Shown here in pieces: positions 12,942 through 48,971 of a stretch of DNA of 60,074 nucleotides. Made by a program: the position numbers and the translations under genes. Each line of letters opens with the position of its first letter. The first letter of the stretch is position 1. Source of the stretch: Chiloscyllium plagiosum (lineage: Eukaryota). Under the pieces are notes generated by a model. It was not told where the DNA came from. It did not search any database and worked only from the letters and a program-made list of their open reading frames with translations. The stretch spans positions 10,146,241 to 10,206,314 of the forward strand of contig NC_057749.1 in NCBI RefSeq assembly GCF_004010195.1, read 5' to 3'.

Positions 12942-13062
12942 GTGGTCTGTGGAAATGATCAGGTTAGCATCAAAGAGGATTGACAGAAAGCCTTCGGTAA
13001 TTAAGGGCTTACAGTATATGAATGGTCAGCCACCCTTGGCCTGTAGAGTACACAAGATATAG
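12942..13062 (+). pseudogene. SORD-like exon 9 (last exon) remnant of the upstream paralog
   Basis: cttcctag acceptor in the expected phase 2, then WSVEMIRLASKRIDRKPSV versus SORD WPVAISMLASKSVNVKPLV; similarity is lost afterwards, so the 3' end is approximate. Confidence 0.72.
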
Positions 13063-22869: not shown

Positions 22870-23263
22870 AGAGTCATATAGTCATGGAGACAGCACGGAA
22901 ACAGACCCTTCGGTCCAACCCGCCCATGCCGACCAGATATCCCAACCCAATCTAGCCCCACCTGCCAGCATCCAGCCCANNNNNNNNNNNNNNNNNNNNN
23001 NNNNNNNNNNNNNNNNNNNNNNNNNNNNNNNNNNNNNNNNNNNNNNNNNNNNNNNNNNNNNNNNNNNNNNNNNNNNNNNNNNNNNNNNNNNNNNNNNNNA
23101 ACATCCTTGTAAATCTTTTCTGAACCTTTTCAAGTTTCACAACATCCTTCCGATAGGAAGGAGACCAGAATTGCACGCAATATTGCAACAGTGGTCTAAC
23201 CAATATCCTGTACAGCCGCAACATGACGTTCCAACTCCTGTACTCAATACTCTGACCAATAAA
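22870..23263 (-). mobile_element. CR1/HER1 3' fragment spanning an N gap
   Basis: LVRPLLQYCVQFWSP on the minus strand. Confidence 0.88.
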
Positions 23264-24557: not shown

Positions 24558-25769
24558 GTGTCTTGATTTGATGCTTTTCATTGACACAGATACCTGCATA
24601 CAGTGAAAAGTTTTGTTTTGCATGCAGTCCAGGCAGGTCATACCATACATGGGAATACAGATTGTCAGGTGTTTAGACAGAGTGAGGCATACAGGGTTAT
24701 GACTGCACAGGAAGTATGCATGTGTCTTAAAGAGAGCTATGTTTCTAACTCTGACCGTTGGTGAGAGTACCTTTAAAATGACCACTCAAATGATTGCTGT
24801 GAACCATGAGCAAAATGATTTTGTTCCTTGCTAATCTGAAGCAAGCTTCCAAGAAAGTGAAATGGTGGGCAACTCGAACGCGAAGCTCTACCAGTGAAGG
24901 CAGCCTCCTGTATTGTGCGATGACGGTTTGAGCCTTGATGGTCAACTCTGTATTCAAGGCATCACCTGCTGGGCCTCAGGATCCCTTGGCTGGCATGTCA
25001 GTCTCTGCGGAGGAGGAAGGCAGTGGCCTGAGATTCGCTGGTTTCCACTTTTGCTGGGTAATCTTCTCATCCGGTTGAGCTGTGCATTCCTTCCCATCAC
25101 TTGCAATGCCCTGTCGAAGGAACAGCCTACAGAAATGACACCTTCCAGGGATTTTTCTCCCCCCCCAGTTATCAAAGTCAATCTCCTCCAACTTCACAAC
25201 TTGCATGCAGAGTTACCCAGTGGCTTACCAGGAAGCCGTGACCCAGTGAGCAGTTTGCCCCCATGCATTTAAGTCTTTAGATGTACACCCATCATCCATC
25301 AATTCCACCAGTGGAGATGTTGGTGGAACTGAGCATAGGCTGATGGAATTAACATGCTCCTGGACCTCTGAATTGGTGGCTGAGATATATCTGATAGGAA
25401 GCGTTGCTTTATAACAGGGATATAACTGGGTAGTGGTGTCACTGAATGGTCATAGAAGCTTGGGAAAATTTGAATACAGTCAGCCCAGGTTTCTGCAATC
25501 TATTGAGCATGTTAATGGTCAGCAAAAAGGCAAGAGGAAATTCAAGCCAAGGAGCACTTTGGCAGCAAAGGAGAGAGAGCATGGGTAAAAGGGGGAATGG
25601 AAAATCTCACTCTTCAGGTGGACACCGATGGCCTTTTCCCTACCAGTTATAATACAACTGCAAATGCTGCGGGTAGTGAAGCCTTGTTTAATGACATGTT
25701 TTGGAAGGGCCAAGTGGGCCACCCTCTCATCTTATATCCAATCAAAAACAAGTTGCCCCTCAGTGAATG

Positions 25770-26170
25770 GTGGGTGGGGCCGTTATTGGGGAAATCAGGC
25801 TTTTGATTGGCTTAAAAGCTGCTGAGGAGCAGAGGATTGGACCAGTCCTGGCCCTTAAGGGGTCATGACTGACGTACCCCCGATAGACGTCACCATGGGA
25901 ACTGTTGACACGCCCCCTACGCCTCAATGGTTGCTATGGATGTTATCTATGACAGAGACTTATTAAACTTCATGCAAAAGTTCACAAATTAAGTTACACA
26001 GTTACGCTGGTGCAGCAAGGGTGGGGCATCTGAACCAGCTCAGGGGAAAGGGGAAATTTAAGCAGAGGGGGAGGTTTGCTTAACTTGAGGGATACACACA
26101 TCCTTCAACTCATCTTCCAACCCAAGATCCCAGTCAGTAAAGAAGAAGGAAGCCACTAACAGGACTAAAC
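25770..26170 (+). promoter_or_regulatory. Putative proximal promoter / 5' UTR of the SORD-like gene
   Basis: Within 400 bp of the ATG: GGGTGGGGC boxes (25772, 26019), two inverted CCAAT (ATTGG 25806, 25836) and CRE-like TGACGT/GACGTCA (25870, 25886). Motif inspection only. Confidence 0.35.
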
Positions 26171-26221
26171 ATGGCGCAGGACAACATGGCTTTGGTGTTA
26201 GCCTGTGGAGAGTTGAAACTG
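26171..26221 (+). CDS. sord: SORD-like gene, coding exon 1 (MAQDNMALVLACGELKL)
   Basis: ATG in aaacATGG context; the peptide resembles the SORD N-terminus (NLSLVVHGPGDLRL); phase-0 donor gtaatc at 26222; in frame with exon 2. Confidence 0.85.
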
Positions 26222-26739
26222 GTAATCACACTTTCTGTTTTTCTTCTGTGATGGATCAACCATGTGTGAACCCGCAGGAGGTCGAAGGCATCAGGGTGAA
26301 GGACGTCTTCCTGCGGGGGGACACGGTATAAAGTAGAAATGCACATGAAACCTATCAAAGCAAGTTTAGGTGATAGAGGAGCTGGTCTAAACGTTGTTTT
26401 ACCAGTGTGCGTTCAGCCTCTGTCATGACAATGCCCCTTAATTATAACCAAATATTAAAATGAAAACTTAAAGGTTCCAAGGTTTGGGGGGGGATTAAGC
26501 AGAGAAATGCGGGGAACAAGATCAATTCGTTTCCCTCCTGGGTTGGTTTCACGATGTGCCATCGCTGGGATAAGTTTCCTATTGTTGTCAGCAGGTACGT
26601 GTCCAAGTGATGCCTGTAACGTCGCCATTGCCGTGTTATGTTCACGTATAATTGGTGCAGTTTATTCACTGGGACCGAATCAAACACCTCCCCACCAAAT
26701 CAATCCGCACTGTTTCGGTATTTGTTGGTCTTTAACCAG

Positions 26740-26852
26740 TGCGACTTTGCTTCAGTGTGTTGCTTTAGTCTACTGTGTGATATGTATGGGTAGCACGCAC
26801 AAAAAAAATCACTACTGTATCTCAGTGCATGTGACAGTAATAAAATCAAAAT
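26740..26852 (+). mobile_element. Rex1/Babar-like LINE 3' tail (another at 24562-24720 -)
   Basis: cactgtatctcagtgcatgtgacagtaataaaatcaaa-type terminus. Confidence 0.5.
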
Positions 26853-27107
26853 AGTTTTTGTATTTTTTGCTAATAGCTAATAACACCACAAAAAAAAATC
26901 AAAAACTATTTTGCAAAATGCCCAACGAGTAAGGCTTCTGGCAGATTTATGATCCGGCCCTGAAGTGTAATGAACAATTATTAGGAATGGGGGCCACATA
27001 AATGCTGGCAAATAGGACTAGACTTATTTAGGCTGTCTGATCAGCATGGACAAGTTAGAGCAAAGGGTCTGTTTCCGTCCTGCACAACTCTGACTCCATG
27101 CGACTTT

Positions 27108-27475
27108 TGAGAAGATTTTTAACTCAGGTTGATGTTGAAGTCGTAAGTTTGCTTGCTGAGCTGGTTAGGTTTGTTCTCAGACGTTTTGTCACCATGCCAG
27201 GTAACATCATCAGTGAGCTTCCATTGAAGCGCAGGTGTTCTGTCCTGCTTTCTATTTATGGGTCTTGGTCTGTTCCAGTGGGTGATATCATTTCCGGTTC
27301 TTTTTCTTAGAGGTTGACAAATGGGGTTCAAATCGGTGTGGTTATTGATGGGAGTTCCGGTTTGAATGCCAGACATCTAGGAATTCCCATGCAAAAGAAG
27401 GTTCACTGATGTTACTTCGCATGGGAATTCAACGTTTGAGAACAAACCTACCAGCTCAGCGAGCAAACTTACAAT
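27108..27475 (-). mobile_element. Penelope-like element end, family D (second copy ~15710-15940)
   Basis: The minus strand encodes an EFLDVWHSNRNS/INNHTDLNPICQPL GIY-YIG-type C-terminus; hammerhead-like CTCA-CTGATGA-T-GTTACC..GGTGAC-aAAAC-GTC-TGAG at 27176-27217; inverted arm at 27400-27475. Confidence 0.75.
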
Positions 27476-28167
27476 CTATAACAGGGAGGAGTTGTTCTAT
27501 AGATTGTATATACCCCACGTAACATAATTTGGACCAAGTATTTAGGAGCAATACCTCAATGTTGAGGCTGAGCTGGATAGATTTCTGAATTCCAAGGGAG
27601 TCAAGGACTGTGGAGTTGACAGGCAGGTTAGTGAATTTGAGGCCAATCCGAGTAACCATGATCTCATTGAATGATGGATCAGACTCATGAGATCAAATGG
27701 TGTAATTCTGCGCTTATTTTTCATGTTCCTTTCTTTTTATAATGTTAATGAAGACATGGAATAAGCTGCCATTGGATTGAGCTAAAATGCAAATTTGTAG
27801 TTGTGCCAGGATAAACCTATTCATGTAGGGAACTCATGAGAAAATGGAAACTCATTCAGGGATAGAGTAGATTACAGCAAGCATTTAGGTATGTTGTAGA
27901 CCCAGATAGAGGAAATGACAGGTGAGTTGCAGGATTTTTGATCAGCTAAGATGGAAATGGCCTCCTTCATCTACCTTTATGACCAGGGAAATACAAAGAG
28001 CCATTGGAAAGAGAGAGCTCAACACCCACTTTGTATTTTCTTCTTCTGTATTTCCAGCTCACACATAATTAGCATCAAGACCTACTATTGCCTCTTATTT
28101 GATCATACATAGCTTAGCTCGTGAGAACCTGACTTCTTTCTAAAAGGCTTTTTTTCTTCATTCACAG

Positions 28168-28201
28168 GAAAAACGTCCAGTCCCAGAACTCTGCCCTGGC
28201 G
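28168..28201 (+). CDS. sord: SORD-like gene, exon 2 (EKRPVPELCPG+G), 34 bp
   Basis: Polypyrimidine tract plus cacag acceptor and gtaagt donor; 34 bp, phase 0/1, as vertebrate SORD exon 2 (ENYPIPEPGPN). Confidence 0.92.
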
Positions 28202-28529
28202 GTAAGTCTGTCTATCCTGCTTAAGGTCTTTAAACAGTGTTATACGTATCAAAAATTGTTATTGCAGTGAGCTTCCCCTTAGTCAGTACCCAATGTCCAG
28301 AATTGTTCATGCAACCAGCAAAAGTTTCAACAAAAATTTGCCATTTTTATAAAATTTCTTCAAAAATGTTCCATTCTGCATTTGTTTACCAGGTATGGGG
28401 GTATTCCTCATCATCCCCACTAACAGTGTGACCCACCAACCCCCACCCCCATGCAGCCGCCATTACAGTCACAGCTCATTGAAGTTGTGATCGTATTAGA
28501 TCCAAAACCTTTCACCCACCAATCAGCTA

Positions 28530-29440
28530 TGTCCTCTAATGTGATTGCCACCCGAGCTCTAAAGGGAAAGCATGTTGTTTTGACTTTGAAACAGAAAACA
28601 GAAATATGTGAAAGTCTGGGAAAGAATGAAAATTGCAATGTGTGTATGTAGGAATTCAGTATTGATTCATCGACATAAGACGATGCTGCTCCTTTAACAA
28701 GGTTATGTTGTCCTTAGCTTTTTTTTCAGAGAGGTTGTAAAAAGACACAGGCTCTGAAAAGTCTGTGGTTGAGGGGTTTCAGGGCCAATCTAATTATAGC
28801 TAACAGATATTGCTCAGGCAGAAGGCTTTTAATTAAAAAAAAATGATTGGACAATGAAAGGAGAGTGGCCAGTTCTCCCAGCTCAGCATTACTCTGGTTT
28901 GGTTTGGTTTTTAGCGGTAGTGTGGAAAAAGCTGCTGGATCCCCAGAAGCAGGTCCATGCTGGTACTTTCTCTCTTTGACTTCTCTCCTGTAAGACCCTG
29001 TGTTTGATTTTATCTTTTGTGCCAAGGGGTGTTTATGGGGATCGTTGCAAGTATTGGGAACACGAGCATTAAGGTGGGATAATTTGTTGAGTTTTCGGAT
29101 GGGTTAAGTTATTCTGTATTCTGTTCTCTTTTGGTTGTGTTTCATTTGGTAATCTTGCAAATAAATTGTTTTGTTTAAAACTAAGTGGTTTGACCAGCTG
29201 CATCCCTCCTGGAATATCCACCTTACACCTGCTGAAAACAACTAGCAAAGTTAAGGCCTGGGCTACTTTCTTGAAATGTTTTGAGGGGATCTGGCCTGGT
29301 CCAAAACAGATATTAAAGTAGAAAGTGAAAAGCTGAAAGAGTTCTTTGCAAAATTGCAGACTGATAAAATTGTAGAGCACTGTAACATATCACACATCAG
29401 TTAGAGCATGATATGGCACTAAGAAGTCATAAGAACATAA
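28530..29440 (+). mobile_element. Tigger/pogo transposase N-terminal relic split by a ~630 bp insert
   Basis: KGKHVVLTLKQKTEICESLGKNEN...EFSIDSST (CENP-B-type HTH) resumes at ~29309 as DIKVESEKLKEFFAK. Confidence 0.65.
28676..29308 (+). mobile_element. Solo-LTR-like insertion
   Basis: Cleanly interrupts the Tigger frame; has AATAAA (~29160) and ends ..aaca; no clear TSD. Confidence 0.45.
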
Positions 29441-29476
29441 AGATGGTAATCTTCTAGTGTTGCCTGGAGTCCTTCA

Positions 29477-29795
29477 TCATGGAATCCCTACAGCACGGAA
29501 ACAAGCCCTTCGGCCCAACAAGTTCACACCGACCCCCTGAAGAGTAACCCACCCAAACATATTCCCCTACCCTATTACTCTACATTTCCCCTGACTAATG
29601 CATCCAACCTACACATTCCTGAACACTGTGAGCCATTTAGCATGGCCAATTCACCTAACCTGCACATCTTTGGATTGTGGGAGGAAATCCACGCAGACAC
29701 GGGGAGAATGTGTGGAGTTTGCACAATCACCCGAGGCTGGAATCGAACCTGGGTCCCTGGTGCTGTGAGACAGCAGTGCTAACCACTGTGCCATC
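29477..29795 (-). mobile_element. HE1-type V-SINE
   Basis: Family similarity. Confidence 0.88.
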
Positions 29796-30303
29796 CTCCA
29801 TGAACTCCTGGGTTCTATTGAGTAGCTTTAAGCTGCAGAAATCTATTCTGCAGTGCCAATCAGATCCTAGCTCCTAATTCACACAATATAACTTTAGCAT
29901 AGCTGCTGATTAGAGGTGGATCCTGAAGTTGACATTGCTACCGTGAGGCAGAAATGACTCAAGAAGACAACTTTATTTCTTGAATGGAAAATTAGGCCTT
30001 GCACAGCTTGGAAATTTGCTGCTTACTGCTCCCCAGAAGAAGCTGATCAAGGAAGCAGAGTTCCAGTGCTGTAAAGTTATGTCGTCATAGAAAATTTTTT
30101 GACATGTCTGAAGCATGTACATCCTGATTTGCTGATGATTCTCCATTCCTGTGCAGTTTTTCTTGCAGACAGATGTATTTAGTCAATCTTCAAATCTGTC
30201 TTCATGCCCTTTCCTTCTTCATGTTAGTTATGTGCATTTAAATAACCTTTTCTTTCAGTCCACCTAGCATTTTATCCATTTCAGCAAGTATCGGAGATAT
30301 TAA

Positions 30304-30529
30304 TGATTTGGAGATGCCGGTGTTGGACTGGGGTGTACAAAGTTAAAAATCACACAACACCAGGTTATAGTCCAACAGGTTTAATTGGAAGCGCGCTAGC
30401 TTTCAGAGCACCGCTCCTTCAGGTTGTGGAGTCCATTATCACCTGGTGAAGGAGCAGCGCTCCGAAAGCTAGCGCGCTTCCAATTAAACCTGTTGGACTA
30501 TAACCTGGTTTTGTGTAATTTTTAACAGC
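30304..30529. mobile_element. Family C fold-back insert
   Basis: ~80 bp inverted arms (gttaaaaatcacacaacaccaggttatagtccaacagg...); TSD gatattaa (30296-30303 / 30530-30537). Confidence 0.85.
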
Positions 30530-30664
30530 GATATTAACGTATACATTTTAACTGTCTTTTCATGGATTACGGTGTCTCTAAACTCATCAACCATTGTAGA
30601 AGCATTCAAATTAGAAGCAGGAATAGGCCTGAAATAGCCGAGAGAGCCAATCAGTTTAAGGACT

Positions 30665-30885
30665 AAAACAAAACAAAGAACTGTAGGCGCTGAAGACCTG
30701 AAGTGAAAAACAGGAATTGCTGGAGAAACTCAGCACGTCTAGCAGCATCTCTAGAGAGAAAGCAGAGTCAGTGTTTCGAGTCCAATGCCCCTTCTTCAGA
30801 AGACATCTCAAAATATTAACTCTGTTTCTCTCTCCACACATGCTGCCAGACCTGCTGAGGTTCTCCAGCGCTCTCTGTTTTTGGT
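30665..30885. mobile_element. Penelope-like fold-back insert, family B (related pieces at ~1845-1945, 4090-4205, 6885-6990, 19440-19620)
   Basis: Inverted gctggagaaactcagcaggtctggcagcatctgtggagaga arms; imperfect 14 bp TSD (30651-30664 / 30886-30899). The copy at 6954-6983 (-) has an intact CTGAGGA-A-GGGTC-acca-GACCC-GAAAC-GTT core. Confidence 0.7.
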
Positions 30886-32466
30886 TCAGTTCAAGGGCTG
30901 CCAGTGATGGGTAACAATTTCCTCAAATTCCAGGAGTAGCAATTACTGTTTTATAAGCTGTTGTACTGTTTTGGAATATTGAGGGGCAAAAAGATAAAAA
31001 CAACAGCACTTTAAAAAGGAGGGAGATAGACAAAGGCAGAGACCATATGATCAGAGAAAGAAACCAACACTGCTGCCTGTCACAGCAGTGAATCTGCACA
31101 GTTACAGTGATTAAAAGGCATCTGGATGGTTATATGAATAAGAAAGGTTTGGAGGGAAATGGACTGGGTGCTGACAGATGGGACTAGATTGGGTTGGGAT
31201 ACTTGGTTGGCATGGACGGGTTGGACCGAAGGGTCTGTTTCCGTGTTGTACATCTCTATGACCTAAATGCCGGTCTTGCCACCAATGCCCACATCCCATA
31301 TAAGAATAAAAAACAATTAATTCAGCATTACCCTTCCTTTAATATCTCTGGATCACTTCCCTGTAGAATTTCTTTGTTTACTTTTGTCAATATGTGATTG
31401 CAAATTTTCAACCTGCTTTCTGAGTGTACATTTTGATATTTTGATGCATGTCGCACTGCAATGCAGTGCCTGGGCTGAACACATGTTTCCTGAATAAAAT
31501 GACATTAATTTTTCAAAACAAAATATCCTTCAAGTTGCCAGTTGAACTCTGGACTACTCCTTTGAAATGATCCTCTCTCCAAGTTAAAGTTAGAACGTTT
31601 AAAGAAACATTTGGACAGACACACAAATAAAAAATGTTTAGAGGGATATGGGCCAAACACAGGCAAGTGGGACTAGATTAAGTTGAGAAACCTGGTTAGC
31701 ATGGATGAGTTGGACCGAAGGGCCTGTTTCCGTGTTGTAGGGCTTTCTGAACCAGAGACAAAATAATCCAAATGTGTGAGACTCTAGGATGGTAACTATA
31801 TCCATTGGCTAGCTCCAGTACTTAATACCTTGCTTCCTCTTGTTATCTGAATTTGATTAGTATGTTGAAGTCAAATATAACCAAGCTGGTTGTACAAACA
31901 TTTAATGTCACCAAAAAACAGACAGGTTTGGGCAGGGTGGGGTTTAAGACCTGAACAATTCTGTTTCCCCACCCAGACCCGTTGTTGACACATCTAATTC
32001 TGGCTTTAACTGAGACTGGATGATGCGCAGGAGATTAACCCGCTCCAAGGAGTGGGGTTGGAACTCTAGATAGAATCGTTGCCAGGTCCAAGTCTTCTTG
32101 CGGTTTTTCACCTTTAACCCTGGAGTGCTGTGTGTCAGGATAACCTGGCAGCTTCATCGAGCAAAGGATTTGGGAGGATCGGGAGGTGAGTTACACCTCA
32201 CACCTTGACCCCTGGCACCTGCCTGAAGAGTGTTCTCAATCAGGCACTGATTCCACAATGAGACCTCTGCCACTACCCAGACCCCCAAATCTTGATTGGC
32301 AGATGAATTAATTAATTAATTAATATTTTATACAGATTATATTGTTTCTATATCAAGTTAAGCAAAATTGTGTGTTGTTCCAATCTTTACAAGATTTTAA
32401 CATTTTTACTTTCATTCCACAATGTAAGCACAAAACCCTATCTTATTGCTGTGCTGTTCATTTCAG

Positions 32467-32631
32467 ATGTCCTTGTGAAGATGGGTTTTGTTGGGATCTG
32501 TAGTTCAGATATCCATTTCTGGTGTGAAGGAAAGTTTGGGGATTGGGTCGTCAAGAAACCCCTTGTTCTTGGGCATGAAGCAGCAGGGACTGTGTGTAAA
32601 GTGTCCTGTGGCGTGAACCATCTCAAAGCAG
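32467..32631 (+). CDS. sord: SORD-like gene, exon 3 (DVLVKMGFVGICSSDIHFWCEGKFGDWVVKKPLVLGHEAAGTVCKVSCGVNHLKA), 165 bp
   Basis: tttcag acceptor, gtagg donor; contains the GIC and GHExxG zinc-MDR motifs; size and phase match SORD exon 3. Confidence 0.96.
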
Positions 32632-32709
32632 GTAGGTCGAAATACAGTCCTTATGTTGAGCTTTTCCCATTTGCAATTTGTCTTGAGCAATCAAAATAAT
32701 AAAGAGCTT

Positions 32710-32955
32710 GGGAACTGTTTGTCCAGGGAACTTGTTGCTGAAGGCCTAGGGCAAAGGTACTGGTTGCTAAAGGTCAAAGGACTTGTTGCTAAGGACCCCA
32801 GAGCTGGTTGCTAAGGATCCCAAGCTTCGTTGTCATAGACTGGTATGTAAGGGTCAAGCAACTGGTTCACAAGGTTCAAGGGATTGGTTCCCTAAAGGTG
32901 AAGGGACTAGTTTCCAAGGCCACAGGGTTAGCTTATCTGAGACTGTTTGCTAAGT
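32710..32955 (+). repeat. Degenerate ~20 bp minisatellite just downstream of SORD exon 3
   Basis: Repeated ggactggttgctaagg-like units. Confidence 0.7.
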
Positions 32956-34332
32956 CTGGTTTTGAAGGGCTATGTTGGAGTAGTAAATATAATTTGGGTC
33001 CAAAACAATTTTCTCAAGGTTGAGGGTGAAGCTTTTCTTCATCCTTGAATCCAAATAAATTGCTACATCCATAGTGACAAGGTTATCTTGTGGGTGCAGG
33101 CGTTGCATTGCATTTATTCATGGGGTCATCGACACTGGCTAGGCCCATCTCCAATTACCCCTGAGAAAGGTGATCTGTCACCTTGAATTACTGCAGTCTT
33201 TGTGGTGCAGTTACACACAGTGCTGCTAGGTGGGGAGTTCTCGGATTTTGATCCAGTGACAGTGAAGGAACAATATGGTTATAACTGTAATATTTTTGCA
33301 GGGAATCGGATGGTGCATTATGTTGGGACGTGATGGTTTTACCTCTGAGGTCCTTAAAACCCACCTTGATCACCATGGAAATCGGATCTTGAAACAGTTT
33401 TTGGGCAGTGCTTCATATAGGAAGCAGTTAAGCAGATGATTGGGATTCTTAGATTAATTCATTGACTGCATTAAAGGTAATAGATGAAAGAAAAATACCA
33501 CAGGTGATCTGGTGATGGGGAAAATAAACTGTGTTTAAGTAATGAGTGCTTGTTGTGGGTACATGGATACAGCGGTAATGGGTACATACCTCTCAGCCAG
33601 GAGAGCTAGGTTCCAATCCCATCTGCTCCAGCATTATCAAATAACGTCTTTAAACAGGTTGAGAAATCACCATTGACTGGGTAGATGGGAAGGGGGTAGT
33701 GATTCTCATGGTGTGGTAGTAGTGTTCCTACTTCTGAGACAGGAAGCCTTGGTTCAAGTCCTGCCTCCTCTCAAGATGTGTCATAACACTCCTGAACAGA
33801 TTGATTAAAAGGTGGGACTGGTGTGTAGAAGGAGCCGTAAGACTGATTAGTTATTAATCTCTATGCACAATGTACTTGGTTTGTATTTCATTGCTGGCTT
33901 AGATCCAAATTGACAATGAAGCAGAGATGGTTGCCTAAAGGTGGAGATTGGAAACTAAAAGTTCTTTTCAGATAGAAGCTTGTAATTTGAGTTAGTTTTG
34001 AGAAGAATGGCTGAAAGTATCAAGATGCAATTTCTCACCGATGTTCTATGATGCTAAACCTTCTGATCAATAGAAAAATGGTGTAGAGCTAGGGAAGTGG
34101 GTTACATCCTTATTACTTAAAGTAAAAATAAGGTATGACCTTGAAACTGCTTGCACACTTACAGAAACAAGTGATGAGGCACCATGAACTTCATATAGCA
34201 TCTGCTGGACAATTGTGAGGACCAGACTATCACTGATGCAAAATGACTGAATGCAGACAGCATGATACAGAGATACAGGGATAAGGCTATTATCTAAGTA
34301 GGCAACTACTGAAAATTGGCAGTATAGATAGT

Positions 34333-34528
34333 ATAGTGCAACCCCGCATTGTAGAACAATTGCGCTTTAGAAACAGCACTTAAAATATTGGTGATGTAAT
34401 CACGTTACAGCCAACATGCATTTTAAAAGTTTGCGCTTTAGAAACAGTGTCCCCAGTTTGTCACTTTGTGTTAACGAAACCTAATGAATTTGCATTAACG
34501 AAACTGCATTATAGCAGAACGACCTCTA
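34333..34528. mobile_element. Probable short Tc1/pogo-type MITE inside the copia relic
   Basis: Internal repeats (ttgcgctttagaaacag x2, ttaacgaaac x2) and a TIR-like end ttatagcagaacgacctcta. Confidence 0.4.
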
Positions 34529-35550
34529 AAGTATCAGGTGCCAACAGGGGGTCTGAGAATAGAGGAATGCCACCATTACAGGGAGAGCAGGAAATGACAT
34601 CAGCAAATACAATTATTGACTAAATGTGAAAGATGAGAGTCAGGAGGTAAGATCCATCGATTGGAAAAATGAAAGAAAGCTGAGGAAGGCCAGGGAATGC
34701 AGTGCAGGTTTTGGAAGTGGACCAGGTTCCTTGAATATGGATGAAGGAAGAGATTGCAAGCGTGCACAAGGAATTATAATCCTAGGAGGGGGAGATTTTA
34801 TAGTAGTAATCCAAGAACCAAATAGGAAGATGAGTAGATGTGACAGTTTTATAGGAACAAGGACTATGGAACTGGCTGGGAATGCCACAGTAAGTAGAAT
34901 CCCTTATGACTGGGAGTTTTCAGGTTACAAACCAACTCTAGGTTATGTTGATAAAGAATGGCGGATAAAGAGTAAGCAGGAAATAGTTTGGTATAGTAGA
35001 AAGGGGATGAGCAGCCTTATCATTCAAATGGATATACACAAGAAAAATGGGACATACAATGGCTCAGGGATTTGAAGAGAAACTTGGAGATCAGGCTGTT
35101 AGAGTAGTATTACACTGCAGGAAACGTGGAAATGTTCTGATGTCTATTTTTGCAGGGTGAAAGATTTCAAGGGGAAATATTTCTGAAACACCTAAAGAAA
35201 TGAGTGATATAGAAGGGAAGCTATGGAAAATAGAAATGAACAAAGGTGTTTATGGGTTGAATGATGCAGCATGGTATGGTATTTCTCAGTTAGTAACCCC
35301 CTCACCATCCCCTACAATCACTAAACACTTGCTGAAAGAAAGTTACATTGAGCTTAAAATAGTTGCAATAATGTTCTACTAGTATATAGAGAGAAACTGA
35401 CAAGCATCTTTATAATGCACGTCAAAGATTTTCTATGGTAAGATGCTAAAGAATTTGACAATGTATGATAGACGAAAGGGAATTTAAATGCAAAAGGTTA
35501 GATAGTAAACATTAGTCGTGAATTTTGATCAACAGTCCTCCTTGGAAAGT

Positions 35551-35786
35551 TTCAGAAGTCACACAACACCAGGTTATAGTCCAACAGGTTTATTTGAAGT
35601 CACAAGCTTTCGGAGCACTGCTCCCTCGTCAGGTGAAGATGGAGGGTTAGACTTCACCCGACAAAGGAGCAGTGCTCTGAAAGCTTGTGACTTCAAATAA
35701 ACCTGTTGGAATATAACTGAGTGTCATGTGACTTCTGTCTTTGTCCACCCGCATCCAACTCCGGTGCCTCCACATCATGGCTACAC
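35551..35786. mobile_element. Family C variant fold-back insert, intact hammerhead at 35600-35636 (-)
   Basis: Inverted arms; the minus strand reads TCAC-CTGACGA-G-GGAGC-agt-GCTCC-GAAAG-CTT-GTGA; TSD ggaaagt. Confidence 0.82.
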
Positions 35787-36439
35787 GGAAAGTGTTATTC
35801 ACGTCCCAGTTCATTGAAACAGGTTCTCACAGAAAAATGATTTTGCATCGAGAGAGGAAACCGACAAGTTATGCCAGTTAAACTGGTGGTGTAGTCAGAC
35901 TAGGCTTGACTCCAGGTATAACATAGTGGAGCTGACTGCTTTTATTGAGGAAGTCTGAAGCAGTATTCCCTGTGAGTAGGTTATGTGTTCCCCGGTCAGA
36001 TGGCAGAAAGCAGCCTGGCAGATTTGATTATCAGCCAGCCATTCAGAGATCTTAGAGATCCATGCAGCCGTCCGAAACATGAATGGAAGCATAGGTGTGG
36101 AGAGCAAATAAAACATTCGCCAAATGAAATTCTGAAAAACGCATACCTATGTTTCCAGTGTTGGATCTGGTCCAGCATTCTATACACGTCCTTTTTTTAG
36201 TAATAGTGTATATACCAGTCTTTCAGGTGGCTATTCTAACATGGCAAAGTTCATCATACTTTTAATGGGAGTCAATAATTAATGCTGTGCATTGGTCTGG
36301 GAAGCGTGGACAGTAAAAACAGGTGGTTGAAGGCATCTTTGCTGCTGACAAGCTGTATCTAGAAGAAGCTTTAGATACAGGGGTGTATTCATAGGATTTT
36401 TCTGAAGGAAATTCTGTTCAAGAAGCAATCTGAAAGATT

Positions 36440-36870
36440 TGGGTTGGAGGATTTCAGCTATTGGGAGAGGCTGAATAGGCTGGGGCTGTTTTCCCTGGAG
36501 CGTCAGAGGGTGAAGGGTGACCTTATAGAGGTTTATAAAATCATGAGGGGCACGGATAGGGTAAATAGACAAGGGGTGGGGAAGTCCAGAACTTGAGGGC
36601 ATAGATCTATAGTGAGAGGGGGAAAATTTAAAAGGGACCTAAGGGGCAACTTTTCACGCAGAGGGTGGCGAGTATTTGGAATGAGCTGCCCGAGGAAGTA
36701 GTGGAGGCTGGTACAATTTCAACATTTAAAAGACATCTGGATGGAAGGATTTAGAGGGGTAGGGCCAAGTGCAAATAAATGGGACTATATTAATTTAGGA
36801 TATCTGGTCTGCATGGATAAGTTGGACAGAAGGCTCTGTTTTTGTACCGTGTATCTCCATGACTCAATGA
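36440..36870 (+). mobile_element. CR1/HER1 3' fragment inside the copia relic
   Basis: Family similarity. Confidence 0.88.
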
Positions 36871-37452
36871 TGGGTCCAAGCAGCTCATTGGGATAAATTA
36901 TAGATGGTTTAATCAACTCACTCCCATTATTTTCAAAGATGATTGTAGGAAATGGAATAATATGCTAACGTAATAGTGAGCGCTCTTGGGAGGGCCATGA
37001 CAAATGGACAGTAAAAGGAGCAGCCAACTTGGCATTGACCTGCAGTGAGAGGGTTTGATACTAACCTTGGCAGTGGAAATGGAAAAGGGAGGGTTTTGTT
37101 GTATTCTCAGCACATTGGACATATTTTAAGAAAATGAACTTATCCAACCACAGTACTCCATCGACCATTGATACAATTGTTGAAAGGTACTTGATTTATA
37201 TGAGAGGGTAATGTTAATTAAAATCAATGTCTTGTGGCACAGGCGACAATATCCCTGCCTGTCCAGGTTCACGGCCCCTTTCTCGACTTGATGTCCATGG
37301 AAGAAGCAAGTAATAATGCCACTACACAATTTGATAATCAGCTTGTAAATCCTTCCAATACACCTACAGCAGGTGATAGGAATGGGAGAGTCTTCAGATC
37401 AGAAATACTTGACACAGACTGGTGCACCTTAAACTATAGCCTCTGGCTTCAG

Positions 37453-37533
37453 TTAAAAATCACACAACACCAGGTTATAGTCCAACAGGTTTATTTGGAA
37501 GCACTAGCTTTCTGAGCGCCACTCCTTCATCAG
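37453..37533 (-). mobile_element. Family C single-arm insert ending exactly at the hammerhead CTGATGA
   Basis: 12 bp TSD ctctggc(t/c)tcag (37441-37452 / 37534-37545). Confidence 0.8.
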
Positions 37534-37875
37534 CTCTGGCCTCAGGTTAGCTTCTGGCTTCCTTGTGCCTCTCATACCTCTAGGCATGTGTAGAGTGTTG
37601 ACAGAGAGGATATTAATCTAATCCATGTACATGCAAACTGGTGAGGTGGCATACACTGTTGCTAATCTTTCCTAACCTATTTTACATTTGAACGTGGTTA
37701 GACTAAAATTAATTCCCATTAACTTTAGCAGCCGAATGGTACATAGATCCTCTAATGGGTTTTCCCCCCAAAGTATGATCTCTGATTCATCTAATTTGTT
37801 GCATTTGTTATTGACAGTACACAGATCTTCACTGTTCATTGTGCACTAAGTATCCATGTTTATCCTTTGCTGCAG

Positions 37876-38035
37876 GTGACAAGGTTGTTATTGAACCCAT
37901 CGTCCCCAGGGAGAATGATGAATATGTTAGAATTGGGCGCTACAACCTGTCCCCAACATGCTTCATGGCTGGCTTTCCTCCTGATGATGGAACTATGTGC
38001 CGATATTATGTCCACAAAGCCAACTACTGTTACAA
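37876..38035 (+). CDS. sord: SORD-like gene, exon 4 ([54 protein letters not shown]), 160 bp
   Basis: tgcag acceptor, gttagt donor; PRENDE..GRYNLSP..PPDDG is typical of vertebrate SORD (no structural-Zn Cys cluster); 160 bp, phase 1/2. Exons 5-9 were not found in the window. Confidence 0.96.
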
Positions 38036-38833
38036 GTTAGTCCGTCACCGACTGTATTAATGATATTGTTGTTACTGAAAGTTATTTAAATTCCTCTTTA
38101 GTGCAGCCTGAGTATTTTAGCACAGGGATACCGACAGGGGCAGCTGGACTGAAGTGCACTCTGATAAACCAGGCTAGTAGGTGCTGAAGGAAACAGATGT
38201 TGTAGAATGGTTGATTCCTGGCCAATGCCGCACATGTGTGGTTGTTGCTACTCCCTTATCATTAGTCTTGTCCCACCTGCAGGAAGGTAGCATCTCTGGT
38301 GATAGGGTGTAGTTGGGAAGAGGTTACCCTGGGTGGCCTTGACTTTGTCTCTGGATTCCATGAAATGTCATAGCGTCAGGTTAAACACGAGCAGTGAAGC
38401 CTCTTTCCTATTTGCTCCTTACTCTCCTCAAATGCCACCCTCCCCAGCTGCTGAAGTAGTTTTCCTCTATGTTGAACTTCACTAGGAGGGAACAATGAGG
38501 GTGGCAAGGGCACAGAGTTTACTCTGGGTGGATGACTTCAATGTCCATCATCCAGATTGACTGACTGGGCAGCATCCCTGCTGACTGATCTGGTTGAGTC
38601 TGGAAGGACACAGCTGCTGGACAGGTTCTGAGGCAAGTGGTGAGGAAAAATGCTCTTGACCTCATCTCCAGCAATCTGCAGACTGCAGGTTTGTCTGTCC
38701 ATGACAGTATCACTAAGAGTGACAACTGCACAGCCCTTGTGGAGGTGAAACCTGCTCTTCAAATTGAGGATACTTTCCATTATGTGTGTGGCCCTGTCAC
38801 CATGCTAGATGGAGTAGACTTCAAACAGGTCCA

Positions 38834-39722: not shown

Positions 39723-41408
39723 AAAAATGTGTTGCTGGATAAGCGCAGCAGGTCAGGTAGCATCCACGGAGCAGGAGAATTGACGTTTCGGGCATAAGCC
39801 CTTCTTCAGGAATGAGGAAGGTGTGCCAAGCAGGCTGAGATAAAGGTAGGGAGGAAGGACTTAGGGGAGGGGCGTTGGGAATGGTTTATAGTAAACGTCC
39901 GTGTTGAGTCGGTCGCCCGAGGTAGAAATGGAGACATCTAGGAAGGGGAGGCAGGAGTCTGAGACGGTCCAGGTAAATTTGAGGTCGGGGTGGAAGGTGC
40001 CATGGGCACCCGCATGGGCCCCAGCTATGTCCCAAATGAGTAGCCATGGGCACCCACATGGGCCCCAGCTATGCCCCAAAGGAGTAGCCATGGGCACCCG
40101 CATAGGCCCCAGCTATGGCATGAAGGAGTAGCCATGGGCACCCGCATGGGCCCCAGCTATGCCTGCCTCTTCGTCGGATATGTGGAACAGTCCATCTTCC
40201 GCAGCTACACTGGCACCATCCCCCATCTTTTCCTCCGCTACATCAATGACTGTATCGGCGCTACCTCATGCTCCCACGAGGAGGTTGAACAGTTCATCCA
40301 CTTTACTAACACTCCTCCCTCCCCTTGCTAGACCTCTCCATTTCTATCTNNNNNNNNNNNNNNNNNNNNNNNNNNNNNNNNNNNNNNNNNNNNNNNNNNN
40401 NNNNNNNNNNNNNNNNNNNNNNNNNNNNNNNNNNNNNNNNNNNNNNNNNNNNNNNNNNNNNNNNNNNNNNNNNNNNNNNNNNNNNNNNNNNNNNNNNNNN
40501 NNNNNNNNNNNNNNNNNNNNNNNNNNNNNNNNNNNNNNNNNNNNNNNNNNNNNNNNNNNNNNNNNNNNNNNNNNNNNNNNNNNNNNNNNNNNNNNNNNNN
40601 NNNNNNNNNNNNNNNNNNNNNNNNNNNNNNNNNNNNNNNNNNNNNNNNNNNNNNNNNNNNNNNNNNNNNNNNNNNNNNNNNNNNNNNNNNNNNNNNNNNN
40701 NNNNNNNNNNNNNNNNNNNNNNNNNNNNNNNNNNNNNNNNNNNNNNNNNNNNNNNNNNNNNNNNNNNNNNNNNNNNNNNNNNNNNNNNNNNNNNNNNNNN
40801 NNNNNNNNNNNNNNNNNNNNNNNNNNNNNNNNNNNNNNNNNNNNNNNNNNNNNNNNNNNNNNNNNNNNNNNNNNNNNNNNNNNNNNNNNNNNNNNNNNNN
40901 NNNNNNNNNNNNNNNNNNNNNNNNNNNNNNNNNNNNNNNNNNNNNNNNNNNNNNNNNNNNNNNNNNNNNNNNNNNNNNNNNNNNNNNNNNNNNNNNNNNN
41001 NNNNNNNNNNNNNNNNNNNNNNNNNNNNNNNNNNNNNNNNNNNNNNNNNNNNNNNNNNNNNNNNNNNNNNNNNNNNNNNNNNNNNNNNNNNNNNNNNNNN
41101 NNNNNNNNNNNNNNNNNNNNNNNNNNNNNNNNNNNNNNNNNNNNNNNNNNNNNNNNNNNNNNNNNNNNNNNNNNNNNNNNNNNNNNNNNNNNNNNNNNNN
41201 NNNNNNNNNNNNNNNNNNNNNNNNNNNNNNNNNNNNNNNNNNNNNNNNNNNNNNNNNNNNNNNNNNNCACACCTTCCTCATTCCTGAAGAAGGGCTTTTG
41301 CCCAAAACGTCAATTCTCCTGCTCTTTGGATGCTGCCTGACCTGCTGCGCTTTTCCAGCAACACATTTTTCAACTCTGATCTCCAGCATCTGCAGTCCTC
41401 ACTTTTTT
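39723..41408. mobile_element. Penelope-like element (family A) with inverted ends and RT fragments
   Basis: GVAMGTRMGPSYACLF..RYIND (+) and HPDLKFT..LPFLDV..TDVYYKP (-); inverted pLTR ends; 14 bp TSD ccctttctgagttc (39709-39722 / 41409-41422); the middle is an N gap. Confidence 0.9.
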
Positions 41409-44668: not shown

Positions 44669-45264
44669 TATGTTTTATTGATGCTGGACAAACCAGTAAC
44701 ATGGACATCCCACAAACACATCTTCAGACAAACTCACCATTGCTGCAGTTCATCTCAATGCTTCTTGTCTATAAAGATGCCTACATTTTGATTGATTAAA
44801 TAACCTTGCAACTATATGTTTTATACAATGCCCCAGTTTGTTGAGGACAATGTAATTCTAGAAGGGGCATGCCTTTTGAGGTATTGTATGATGTTGGAGC
44901 TCTTTCAATATGTAGTATAAGGTCAACTGTCATGGAGCATTTGCTTGTATGTACTTTTGAGTAAACCTGTTCAGTAGATATTATTCTACAACTGTGTAGC
45001 AAGTGGGCCTTGAACTGGGATCTCCTGCTGTAGGAGCAGAGACACTTTCTCTGCAATACAAGAGCCCACAGCATCTGCTTGTGAAATGACTAAAGTTAGA
45101 ATAGATATGCCTTGCTCTTTCTGTGAGTTCAGAAGGATGAACACTTCTTAAATTTATTCATGGAATCAGGGTGTCTCTTGCCCACCCCTAATTGCCCAGA
45201 GTTGACCCACATTGCTGTGGATCTGAAGTAGGCCAGACCAGGTAAGGAATGCTGTTTCCTTCCC

Positions 45265-48200
45265 GGGGCACAGATAGGCGGTTCTGTGGGGGCGAGAGAG
45301 ACTCACGTTTGGTATGTTGCCTCCCAGGTGCAAGGGTACGTGACGTCTCTGATCGTGTTTTCCGGGTCCTTAAGGGGGAGGGGGAGCAGCCCGAAGTCGT
45401 GGTCCACATTGGCACCAAAGACATAGGTCGGAGGAGCGCTGAGGATGTTAGGCAGGCTTTCAGGGAGCTCAGTTGGAAGCTCAGAGTTAGAACAAACAGA
45501 GTTGTTGTCTCTGGTTTGTTACCCGTGCCACGTGATAGAGAGTCGAGGAATAGGGAGAGAGAACAGTTAAATGCGTGGCTACAGGGATGGTGCAAGAGGG
45601 AGGGATTCCGGTATCTGGATAACTGGGGTTCTTTCTGGGGAAGATGGGACCCCTATAAACAGGATGGTCTACACCTGAACCTGAGGGGCACCAGTATCCT
45701 TGGTGGGAGGTTTGCTAGTGCTCTGGGGGGGGGGTTTAAACTAACTCTGCAGAGGCATGGGAGCCCAGACTGTACCTTTAGGGTGCAGGACCTGGAGTGT
45801 AGGAAGGTTAGGAACATGGCATCAATCTCAAAGGAGGATGCCTGTAAACAGGAAAGTGGCTTGAAGTGTGTATACTTCAATGCAAGAAGTATACGAAATA
45901 AGGTAGGTGAACTTGCAGCGTGGGGTGGTACCTGGGACTTCGATGTTGTGGCTATTACGGAGACATGGCTAGAACAGGAACAGGATTGGCTGTTGCAGGT
46001 TCCAGAATTTAAATGTTTGAGTAGGGGCGGAGGTGGGGGTAAAAGAGGGGGAGGTGTGGCATTGCTTGTCAAAGATAGTATTACAGCGGTGGAAAGGACG
46101 ATGGATGAAGACTCGCCATCAGAGGTAGTTTGGGCTGAGGTTAGGAATAGGAAAGGTCAGGTCACCCTGTTAGGAGTCTTTTACAGGCCCCCTAATAGTC
46201 CTAGAATCATTGAAGAAAGGATAGGGAAGGTGATTCAGGAGATGAGTGACAGTAATAGGGTGGTTGTTATGGGGGACTTTAACTTTCCTGATATTGATTG
46301 GGAAAGCTATAGCTCAAGTTCGTTAGATGGGTCAGTGTTTGTTCAATGTGTGCAGGAGAGTTTCCTGACACAATATGTAGACAGGCCAACAAGAGGTGAG
46401 GCCATACTGGATTTGGTTCTGGGTAACGAACCAGGCCAGGTGTTAGAATTAAAGGTAGGTGAGCACTTTGGGGATAGTGACCATAATTCAGTGATTTTTA
46501 CTCTCGTGATGGAGAGGGATAAGTGTGTACTACAAGGCAAGAGTTATAGCTGGGGTCAGGGAAATTATGATGCGGTGAGGCATGACTTAGGATGTGTGGC
46601 CTGGAAAAGTAGACTCCAAGGCAAGAGTGTAAATGATATGTGGAACTTGTCCAAGGGGCAACTATTGAGTGTCCTTGATAATTATGTACCTGTCAGGCAG
46701 GGAGGAAAGGGTCGTGCGAGGGACCCGTGGTTTAATAAGGAATTGGAATCCCTTGTTAAATGGAAGAGGGCGGCCTATCTCAAGATGAGACGTGAAGGTT
46801 CAATTGGCGCGATTGAGAGTTATAGGGTAGCCAGGAAGGACCTGAAGAGAGAGCTAAAAGCAGCAAGGAGGGGACATGAAAGGTCATTAGTAGATAGGAT
46901 TAGGGAAAACCCTAAGGCTTTCTATAGGTATGTTAGGAATAAAAGAATCACTAGGGTAGGAATAGGTCCAGTCAAGGATAGTAGGGGGAAGTTGCGTGTG
47001 GAGGCGGAAGAGATTGGGGAGACACTGAATGAATACTTTACTTCAGTATTTACTCAGGAACAGGGCATTGTCATCGATGTGAATACTGAGTCACAAATAA
47101 GTAGAATGGATGGCTTTGAGGTATGTAGAGAAGAGGTGTTGGAAATCCTGGAAAAGGTGAAAATAGATAAGTCCCCTGGGCCTGATGGCATTTATCCTAG
47201 GATTCTCTGGGAAGCAAGGGAGGAGATTGCAGAGCCATTGGCCTTGATTTTTATGTCCTCTTTGTCTACAGGAGTAGTGCCAGAAGACTGGAGGATAGCA
47301 AATGTGGTTCCCTTGTTCAAAAAGGGGAGTAGGGATAACCCTAGTAACTATAGGCCGGTGAGTCTCACTTCTGTTGTGGGCAAAGTCTTAGAGAGAATTG
47401 TAAGGGATAGGATTTATGCACATCTAGATAGGAATAATGTGAACAAGGATAGTCAGCATGGCTTTGTGAAGGGCAGGTCGTGCCTCACAAACCTTATTGA
47501 ATTCTTTGAAAAGGTGACGAAGGAGGTTGATGAGGGGAAAGCGGTAGATGTGGTATATATGGATTTTAGTAAGGCGTTTGATAAGGTTCCCCATGGTAGG
47601 CTACTGCAGAAAATACGGAGATATGGCATTGAGGGTGAGTTGGAGGTTTGGATTAGGAATTGGCGGGATGGAAGAAGACAGAGGGTAGTAGGTGATGGCA
47701 AAGTTTCTTCATGGAGTGCCGTCACTAGCGGTGTTCCGCAAGGATCTGTTTCGGGACCATTGCTGTTTGTCATTTTTATAAATGACCAGGAGGAGGGGTT
47801 AGAAGGTTGGGTGAACAAGTTTGCGGATGATACGAAAGTCAGAGGAGTTGTTGACAGTGAGGAAGGATGTGGCAGGTTACAGCAGGATATAGAGAAGCTG
47901 CAGAGCTGGGCAGAAAGGTGGCAGATGGAATACAATGTAGCTAAGTGCGAGGTGATTCACTTTGGGAAGAATAACAAAAAGATGGGGTACGGGGCTAATG
48001 GTCGGATACTTGGTAGTGTGGATGAGCAGAGGGATCTTGGTGTCCATGTACACAGATCTCTGAAAGTTGCCACCCAGGTAAATAGTGCGGTGAGGAAGGC
48101 ATATGGCGTACTGGCTTTTATTGGTAGAGGAATTGAGTTCCGGAGTACTGAGGTAATCTTGCAGTTGTATAAGACTCTGGTGCGGCCGCATCTGGAATAT

Positions 48201-48971
48201 TGTGTGCAGTTTTGGTCGCCATACTATAGGAAGGATGTGGAGGCACTGGAACGGATGCAGAGGAGGTTTACCAGGATGTTGCCTGGTATGGAAGAAAGAT
48301 CGTATGAGGAAANNNNNNNNNNNNNNNNNNNNNNNNNNNNNNNNNNNNNNNNNNNNNNNNNNNNNNNNNNNNNNNNNNNNNNNNNNNNNNNNNNNNNNNN
48401 NNNNNNNNNNNNNNNNNNNNNNNNNNNNNNNNNNNNNNNNNNNNNNNNNNNNNNNNNNNNNNNNNNNNNNNNNNNNNNNNNNNNNNNNNNNNNNNNNNNN
48501 NNNNNNNNNNNNNNNNNNNNNNNNNNNNNNNNNNNNNNNNNNNNNNNNNNNNNNNNNNNNNNNNNNNNNNNNNNNNNNNNNNNNNNNNNNNNNNNNNNNN
48601 NNNNNNNNNNNNNNNNNNNNNNNNNNNNNNNNNNNNNNNNNNNNNNNNNNNNNNNNNNNNNNNNNNNNNNNNNNNNNNNNNNNNNNNNNNNNNNNNNNNN
48701 NNNNNNNNNNNNNNNNNNNNNNNNNNNNNNNNNNNNNNNNNNNNNNNNNNNNNNNNNNNNNNCGAGTCGTGAGTTCATGGCATGCCCTGCCAGTAGCAGT
48801 GGTGGACAGTCCCTCTTTATGGGCATTTAAACGGGCATTGGATAGGCATATGGAGGATAGTGGGCTAGTGTAGGTTAGGTGGGCTTGGATCGGCGCAACA
48901 TCGAGGGCCAAAGGGCCTGTACTGCGCTGTATTCTTCTATGTTCTATGTTCTATGTTCTATCTATGTTCTA
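45265..48971 (+). mobile_element. Young, 5'-truncated CR1/HER1-type LINE (partial ORF1 SGNH esterase + ORF2 APE endonuclease/RT)
   Basis: Stop-free frame to the gap at 48313: HIGTxDIG and DGLHLN (SGNH), NARS/ETW/YRPP/GDFN/SDH (APE), GVPQGS/FADD (RT); (TTCTATG)n tail at 48935-48971; inserted into a minus-strand SINE. Confidence 0.96.

Follow-up and report, generated by a model that had tools for sequence, protein, structure and literature searches.

In vertebrates, sorbitol dehydrogenase (SORD) is regarded as a housekeeping enzyme of the polyol pathway with a single gene copy. Does the shark Chiloscyllium plagiosum carry a further SORD whose substrate pocket has been rebuilt? The question is raised by a stretch of 60,074 nucleotides (nt) of contig NC_057749.1 (assembly GCF_004010195.1, positions 10,146,241 to 10,206,314, forward strand), called the window below. 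An earlier reading of the sequence (the original prediction) had described in it an intact SORD paralog with a changed polyol-binding pocket and possibly a new specificity. We found that the window holds exons 1-4 of an intact nine-exon gene of the SORD family, here named gene A. Our favoured explanation, with a probability of about 0.7, is that gene A is an intact, transcribed and likely active SORD paralog with a shifted substrate and an added device made of cysteines and a C-terminal tail. The existence of the gene is not new, as related genomes carry automatic models named "sorbitol dehydrogenase-like". In the literature searched, neither the SORD paralogs of cartilaginous fish nor their pocket, cysteines or tails are described.

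Structure of gene A

The exons in the window were placed by tblastn with P0002, a 380-amino-acid "sorbitol dehydrogenase-like" protein of Chiloscyllium punctatum, and their borders were read from the sequence. The exon carrying GIC and GHE was first located by a six-frame motif scan, at 32316-32696. Residue numbers follow the structure PDB 1PL6; those of the original prediction are higher by one. The parts of the gene are as follows, exons 5-9 lying beyond the window and given in window-equivalent positions.

26171-26221, + strand: exon 1, 51 nt, ATG start, phase 0, donor GT at 26222
28168-28201, + strand: exon 2, 34 nt, encoding EKRPVPELCPG plus one base, with AG acceptor and GT donor
32467-32631, + strand: exon 3, 165 nt, holding C44, H69, E70 and the S-D-x-H motif
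37876-38035, + strand: exon 4, 160 nt, with G96I and the loop CFMAGFPP in place of IFFCATPP
38036-60074, + strand: first 22 kb of intron 4 (25.8 kb in total), with insertions of long interspersed nuclear elements (LINEs)
63868-63986, + strand: exon 5
66980-67045, + strand: exon 6
83963-84141, + strand: exon 7
88549-88670, + strand: exon 8
98530-98776, + strand: exon 9, encoding the tail

Exons 1 and 2 match P0002 residues 1-17 and 18-28, respectively, at 100% (tblastn). Together the four exons in the window sum to 410 nt, that is 136 codons plus two bases, in an open frame with AG/GT at each junction. The spliced 136-codon frame that had been proposed was confirmed, and its start at 26171 and end at 38035 were exact. 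We take the exon junctions to fall as in human SORD.

A tblastn search of the 60,074-nt window with P0002 gave no match to exons 5-9. A protein search of the source genome located them downstream on the same strand of the same contig, beginning 3.8 kb and ending 38.7 kb beyond the window end. The nine joined exons form an open reading frame of 1143 nt with AG/GT in every intron, encoding a protein of 380 amino acids with 31 cysteines; the gene spans about 72.6 kb. Its product differs from P0002 at two of 380 residues (I61L and M211L; 99.5% identity). Disabled exons 5-9 had been named as a reason to give up the original prediction, and these exons are present and open, with canonical splice sites.

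Family membership and catalytic site

In a word-indexed search, the protein encoded by exon 3 matched "sorbitol dehydrogenase-like" proteins of Chiloscyllium punctatum (98% identity), Rhincodon, Carcharodon and Cetorhinus. This exon alone matched the structures of sheep SORD (E 4.7e-18) and human SORD (E 6.2e-17), and Pfam ADH_N (E 5.6e-12). The complete protein P0002 matched Pfam ADH_N (1.9e-21) and ADH_zinc_N (2.5e-22), and was aligned by HMMER to human SORD (PDB 1PL6) with E 2.3e-133. Both the GroES-like catalytic domain and the Rossmann coenzyme domain of the polyol/sorbitol dehydrogenases, a group of the medium-chain dehydrogenase/reductase (MDR) superfamily, are therefore present.

The zinc ligands C44, H69 and E70 and the residue E155, which is encoded outside the window in exon 5, occur in gene A and in all five proteins of its clade (clade A, see below). 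The site for nicotinamide adenine dinucleotide (NAD) is formed by the GAGPIG loop and D203, encoded in exons 5-7 and invariant in the alignment. The S-D-x-H motif is present in the form SSDIH. C44, D47, H69, E70, E155, P156, V159, D203, R208 and Y299 are invariant in the five clade-A proteins. By sequence, gene A is a 380-amino-acid NAD-dependent zinc dehydrogenase of the SORD family.

Vertebrate SORD (EC 1.1.1.14; human 1PL6/1PL8, sheep 3QE3) has the same MDR fold and domain order. Bony-vertebrate SORDs share about 57% identity with the gene A lineage (range 55-59%), and the zinc ligands, the NAD loop, D203 and the lack of a four-cysteine structural zinc lobe are common to both.

Phylogenetic analysis

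Of 6079 candidates in the search with P0002, 3737 proteins reached E <= 0.001, and the best 120 of these were considered. A search with the protein P0017 (lineage C2, see below) added chondrichthyan rows. All well-formed chondrichthyan rows were placed in the trees together with 11 bony-vertebrate rows spanning the groups and one insect outgroup. Excluded were P0001 and P0003 (clade-A models with aberrant internal segments), P0012 (a bat model of 417 amino acids) and the remaining bony-vertebrate rows. The careful IQ-TREE run comprised 44 rows over residues 5-350, with the tails removed, and gave the following groups and supports.

Chondrichthyan SORDs as one clade: 98/90
C1, canonical SORD, 9 rows: 100/99
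C2, 6 rows: 100/100
C3, P0098 and Pristis P0133: 100/100
B, 7 rows: 100/100
A, 6 rows including the window gene: 100/100
Chimaera copy with A and B: 98/97

Elasmobranchs thus have five SORD lineages, namely C1 (canonical), C2, C3, A and B. The window gene groups with P0002 inside clade A (support 100/99). Clade A comprises the sharks Chiloscyllium, Carcharodon and Cetorhinus (Rhincodon is known from an excluded model) and the rays Hypanus and Mobula, and its branching resembles that of the species. Therefore, clade A is older than the split between sharks and rays. The separate paralog that had been proposed was recovered as a clade in the tree; its restriction to sharks was too narrow, since rays are included.

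The stem of clade A is the longest internal branch (0.30). Identity between sharks and rays is 80-82% in A, 80-82% in B, 77-79.5% in C1 and 73-76% in C2. By these values, shark-ray conservation in clade A equals that of canonical SORD, and gene A has thus been held by a constraint no weaker than that on the canonical enzyme. Gene A is not a one-to-one ortholog of bony-vertebrate SORD, because canonical C1 coexists with it and gene A falls in a separate clade.

The substrate pocket

The alignment to 1PL6 (HMMER) confirmed all the substitutions that had been listed against human SORD, namely G45S, Y50F, I56F, F59W, G96I, F118M, C119A, A120G and T121F; G45S, Y50F, I56F and F59W are encoded in exon 3. 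For a wider comparison, 19 putative active-site positions were taken from the available passages of Jia et al. (2015; PMC4404067). Their human equivalents are 44, 46, 47, 50, 56, 57, 59, 69, 70, 118, 120, 121, 155, 156, 159, 274, 297, 298 and 299, mapped in the present analysis by constant offsets of +8 before the coenzyme domain and +6 after it. The pocket of gene A is not that of canonical SORD. Unlike vertebrate SORD, gene A is altered at six of the 19 positions (F50, F56, W59, M118, G120 and F121), while F297, R298 and Y299 of the polyol pocket are retained. The lineages compare as follows.

Bony vertebrates (11 rows): only 59 (F in 10, Y in one) and 274 (L/M) vary among the 19 positions
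C1, B and chimaera copy: canonical pattern save a few single-row changes (F50, Y/S59, S120, I121, L56 or V274)
Clade A: F50 in 5/5, G120 in 5/5, F121 in 4/5 (L in the other), T46 in 4/5; never I56 (F in three, L in one, V in one) and never F118 (Q in two, T in two, M in one)
C2: F50 in 5/5, G120 in 5/5, L121 in 5/5, K298 in 5/5, T46 in 4/5; never F118

Y50F, A120G and T121F/L are thus fixed in clade A at positions that are invariant in bony-vertebrate SORD. G45S, I56F and G96I are restricted to the three shark sequences of clade A (three of the five proteins), and F59W and F118M to Chiloscyllium within it. I56, F59 and F118 appear to have been replaced in a lineage-specific manner. Of the substitutions put forward by the original prediction, F50, G120 and F/L121 hold across the clade (the first two in 5/5), and G45S, I56F, G96I, F59W and F118M do not.

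Nor is the pocket peculiar to gene A, since the same core occurs in the untailed paralog C2. Chondrichthyan C2 proteins (P0017 of Heptranchias, P0041 of Amblyraja and P0126 of Mobula hypostoma) are annotated only as "sorbitol dehydrogenase-like". They share T46, F50, G120 and L121 with clade A, and their K298 matches the ray members of that clade. C2 is chondrichthyan-specific like gene A and belongs to the same gene family cluster. Unlike gene A, the C2 proteins have 354 amino acids, 3.0% cysteine and a canonical C-terminus beginning KCDP. Conservation in both lineages indicates that the pocket change is real, old and common to A and C2.

With two hydroxyl groups lost, the pocket of gene A would be more hydrophobic and less polar, which suggests that its preferred substrate is probably not sorbitol. 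A changed pocket with retained catalytic residues, as originally described, is what the alignments contain; the new specificity is a reading of these residues. AlphaFold2 run on P0002 with a 40-row alignment gave a mean predicted local distance difference test score (pLDDT) of 62.8, with 25-32 in the tail, too poor for pocket geometry or for distances between cysteines.

A parallel is found in plants. In the available text of Jia et al. (2015; PMC4404067), all members of the L-idonate dehydrogenase class are set apart from the sorbitol dehydrogenase (SDH) class by Y42H, A112G and T113S, and the class is reported to have arisen by tandem duplication under positive selection. The same passages describe models of grape SDH and L-idonate dehydrogenase built on human 1PL8, and suggest from this modelling that the substitutions may explain the preference for L-idonate over sorbitol. 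In our mapping, plant Y42, A112 and T113 correspond to human Y50, A120 and T121. That equivalents of the changed residues separate the plant SDH and L-idonate enzymes had been claimed before, and was borne out at Y50 and T121 as far as this source goes. Class II SDH/L-idonate 5-dehydrogenase of Vitis, as described there, resembles gene A in being a tandem duplicate of SDH with the catalytic residues kept and the same three positions changed, and A120G of clade A is the identical replacement. At positions 50 and 121 the sharks have F and F/L, whereas the plant enzyme described there has H and S, and the shark pocket would thus be less polar and not more. Plant L-idonate dehydrogenase is also without cysteine enrichment or a tail, and its origin is independent of that of gene A.

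Cysteines and the C-terminal tail

Exons 1-4 encode nine cysteines in the first 136 residues, compared with five in human SORD (C44, C105, C119, C129 and C139). The excess in this part of the protein, given before as 9 versus about 5, was reproduced with the exon model and the 1PL6 alignment. The complete gene A has 31 cysteines, against 9-14 in the untailed shark and bony-vertebrate copies compared. Cysteine content is 7.2% in clade A, 5.4% in B, 5.3% in the chimaera copy, 2.8% in C1, 3.0% in C2 and 3.3% in bony vertebrates. The cysteine content of gene A is therefore about 2.5 times the usual one.

Only clade A has invariant cysteines at 80, 158, 191 and 205 (5/5). Cysteines 145, 214, 227 and 240 are shared by all five A and all seven B proteins, and C145, C227 and C240 also by the chimaera copy. 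The new cysteines replace polar or small residues, for example E214, S227 and G240, and in the coenzyme domain of the tailed copies they cluster between 214 and 249. Residues 202-205 of gene A, encoded in exon 7, read C-D-M-C and form a C-x-x-C around the NAD-binding D203. Such a motif might make cofactor binding depend on the redox state.

The tails of A and B replace the canonical end KCDPNNQNP. In gene A, a tail of 35 residues rich in glutamine and cysteine stands in place of the last ~8 residues; it consists of a glutamine run, followed by a cysteine-containing glutamine-rich sequence, and ends in QCPQHSFF. The B tail contains QCQQQCQQLLQQCQQQCQQL. Within a glutamine-rich stretch, the B tail has two C-x3-C motifs, an arrangement that resembles the helical-hairpin disulfide motif. 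The tails matched no Pfam family. The best scores in an ESM Atlas look-up of the tail were 0.77-0.79, to unnamed short clusters and below the useful range. No counterpart of a cysteine-rich surface combined with a tail rich in glutamine and cysteine was found among the MDR structures and Pfam families searched. Glutamine-rich substrates of transglutaminase are a possible parallel to the tail.

By their composition and C-termini we group A, B and the chimaera copy as a tailed, cysteine-rich SORD lineage, to which gene A belongs. Since B has a tail and a canonical pocket, the cysteine and tail feature is separable from the pocket change; gene A combines both.

The SORD gene cluster

On the contig, B, C1, a decayed relic and gene A follow one another on the + strand, and C3 lies beyond them on the opposite strand. 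The neighbouring loci are as follows, in contig coordinates for the three genes and in window positions for the relic.

10.076-10.095 Mb (10075855-10094674), + strand: B, with Heterodontus P0014 as best match (tblastn)
10.122-10.145 Mb, + strand: C1, ending 1.6 kb before the window start
10.368-10.398 Mb, - strand: C3, counterpart of C. punctatum P0098
4437-4595 of the window, + strand: relic exon 4 (psi-C2), with acceptor TGCTGCAG and GT donor kept, a 1-nt insertion and an in-frame TGA
12943-12999 of the window, + strand: probable start of relic exon 9, with a pyrimidine tract and the acceptor ttcttcctag followed by GTGG kept

The B exons seen are open, and B has the canonical pocket IFFSATPP and a long tail. 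C1 has the canonical pocket Y50/I56/F59/IFF[S/C]ATP. Its exons 3, 4, 8 and 9 are 100% identical to P0026, a protein named for Chiloscyllium plagiosum by NCBI, and the matches of exons 5 and 7 to P0026 are 82-85% and extend past the exon borders. With C1 on the same contig, gene A is not the sole SORD of this shark, which had been the other main objection foreseen.

Relic exon 4 has the pocket loop SFSAGL (tblastn, and a DNA alignment, flanks included, to exon 4 of gene A). It is closest to C2, with a mean identity of 31.4/53 residues, whereas clade A reaches 27.2 and the other groups 22-26. The relic exon 9 motif SKRID is of the C1/C2 type, as opposed to SKKVD of A and B; the match itself is weak (63% identity to residues 301-319 of C2 P0017; E was 0.16 when the whole window was searched and 0.01 for a subset of 12 kb). 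Taken together, the pieces resemble the remains of an unprocessed C2 pseudogene lying between C1 and gene A. A processed (retro-)pseudogene had been suspected from the tblastn extension and was ruled out, as an intron acceptor and donor are kept. In the genome of Chiloscyllium plagiosum C2 survives only as this relic. A rule by which species would retain either A or C2 was rejected, because both occur in Mobula (A as P0009, C2 as P0126).

Transcription

Contigs of four public runs were aligned to 25500-38500 of the window. One contig of run X4 (record 20, 223 nt, depth 8.8) passes from 32558-32627 straight into 37872-38024; allowing for four ambiguous bases (GCAG), this is the junction of exons 3 and 4. 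This single contig shows that gene A is transcribed, and expression, whose absence would have spoken against the original prediction, was thus seen once in one public run. Exon 3 is present in four public runs of one study, whose library kind is unspecified, and no RNA run was listed with exon 3. From the single-cell RNA run X5, of which ~2% was sampled, 725 reads map, all to intronic repeats, and the exon bins have depth zero.

Repeats in the window

The window is AT-rich vertebrate DNA. It also contains the following features.

45246-48827, + strand: LINE reading frame in intron 4, with GDSL esterase, endonuclease and reverse transcriptase, broken by an N run at 48313-48762
57634-60073, + strand: second LINE in intron 4, an endonuclease and reverse transcriptase fragment that runs off the window end
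22980-23099, 40350-41267 and 48313-48762: N runs, the second and third within reverse-transcriptase-like frames

The first LINE matched Pfam RVT_1 (4.5e-33), Exo_endo_phos (2e-18) and Lipase_GDSL_2 (1.9e-11). Very-high-copy intronic repeats lie at 29406-29839, 30274-30707, 31142-31575, 36350-36783 and 37218-37651. Their summed contig word depth was 1e5-1e6 in X1, X3 and X4, compared with 5-40 for unique sequence. Many repeat-to-repeat joints occur among the contigs aligned to 25500-38500.

Discussion

Under the favoured explanation, gene A would most likely oxidise a secondary alcohol of a polyol-like substrate with NAD+, and the pocket changes would shift its preference away from sorbitol. 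The cysteines and the tail rich in glutamine and cysteine may anchor, cross-link or redox-regulate the enzyme in a specialised cell or structure, which is the weakest part of the explanation. The sperm-specific glycolytic isozyme GAPDHS, with its anchoring extension, and the enzyme-derived lens crystallin zeta-crystallin, the latter also an MDR protein, offer an analogy, being duplicated dehydrogenases with a low-complexity extension or a structural role and the fold kept. Unlike in GAPDHS and the lens crystallins, the extension of gene A is C-terminal and rich in glutamine and cysteine, and the link to sperm or lens is an analogy only.

Several points weigh against this explanation. The case for a role of the cysteines and the tail consists entirely of composition and conservation. 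The list of active-site positions derives from a plant homology model, and its mapping to human numbering is our own. Clade A varies at positions 56 (F/L/V), 59 (M/F/W) and 118 (Q/T/M), which could reflect relaxed constraint and not substrate tuning. The usable sample is five clade-A proteins and the window gene. Splicing was seen in one contig of one run of unspecified library type, and other contigs (X1, X3 and X4) run from exon into intron, as unspliced RNA or DNA would.

The variation at 56, 59 and 118 would also suit a protein that is mainly structural or cross-linked, recruited like the lens crystallins, in which catalysis is secondary or dispensable and the pocket changes mark relaxed constraint. 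The 7.2% cysteine against ~3% in other SORDs, the tail without a Pfam family and the long stem of clade A (0.30) point the same way. We nevertheless consider this unlikely. All catalytic and cofactor residues are invariant in the five clade-A proteins, F50 and G120 are likewise invariant (5/5), and position 121 is only F or L and shows no drift. Moreover, B has the same cysteines and tail yet an unchanged, canonical pocket, and therefore the tail alone does not free the pocket from constraint. That gene A is the only SORD of the shark with an ordinary function, or a decaying pseudogene, is very improbable. The window shows only four exons, and LINEs fill intron 4, as a decaying gene might have it, but canonical C1 lies just upstream, exons 5-9 are intact, the frame of 380 amino acids is open with canonical splice sites, and a spliced contig exists. 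Identity of the protein to its counterpart in C. punctatum is 99.5%, and to the ray orthologs 80-82%.

It is also possible, though we hold it only tentatively, that gene A is a mosaic with exons 1-4 from a C2-type and exons 5-9 and the tail from a B-type paralog, which is compatible with the favoured explanation. Recombination or gene conversion within the tandem cluster would have brought the parts together before the split between sharks and rays. The tree of residues 5-142 places A beside C2 (support 88) and that of residues 143-350 places A with B (support 86-90), whereas the whole-protein tree supports A, B and the chimaera copy together at 98/97. Of the derived states that A shares with C2 alone, eight fall in exons 1-4 and two in exons 5-9, and of those that it shares with B alone, three and 11, respectively (Fisher p 0.011); the groups and the boundary were, however, chosen after the trees were seen. 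The approximately unbiased (AU) test gave p 0.045 against A with B in the 5' part, but A with C2 was not rejected in the 3' part (p 0.07). With the pocket columns removed, the 5' part had no power either way (p 0.59 and 0.37), and the signal could therefore stem from parallel selection acting on the pocket together with its second shell. A C2-like relic does lie 21.6 kb upstream of gene A, while nucleotide identity among the paralog exons of this genome is saturated (59-82%) and carries no signal of origin. A wider reading, which we regard as a long shot, would combine the mosaic with the structural features: cysteine-loaded, tailed SORDs more than 400 million years old would be immobilised by disulfide or transglutaminase cross-links, with A as a mosaic that couples this anchoring half to the C2 catalytic half of altered specificity and acts on a polyol typical of chondrichthyans, not on sorbitol. 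Candidate substrates would then be scyllo- or myo-inositol, or a bile alcohol such as scymnol, and a candidate site, by analogy with GAPDHS, would be the sperm flagellum of these internally fertilising fish.

The cluster of cartilaginous fish separates two innovations, a changed pocket in C2 and A and a cysteine-rich surface with a tail in A, B and the chimaera copy. Since the pocket is changed at the same three positions as in the passage from plant SDH to L-idonate dehydrogenase, it is an example from nature of parallel re-tuning within a fold that is well understood. Gene A offers a manageable system for studying how a metabolic enzyme acquires a new substrate, and possibly a structural or anchored role as well, and it may point to an unrecognised polyol metabolism in elasmobranchs.

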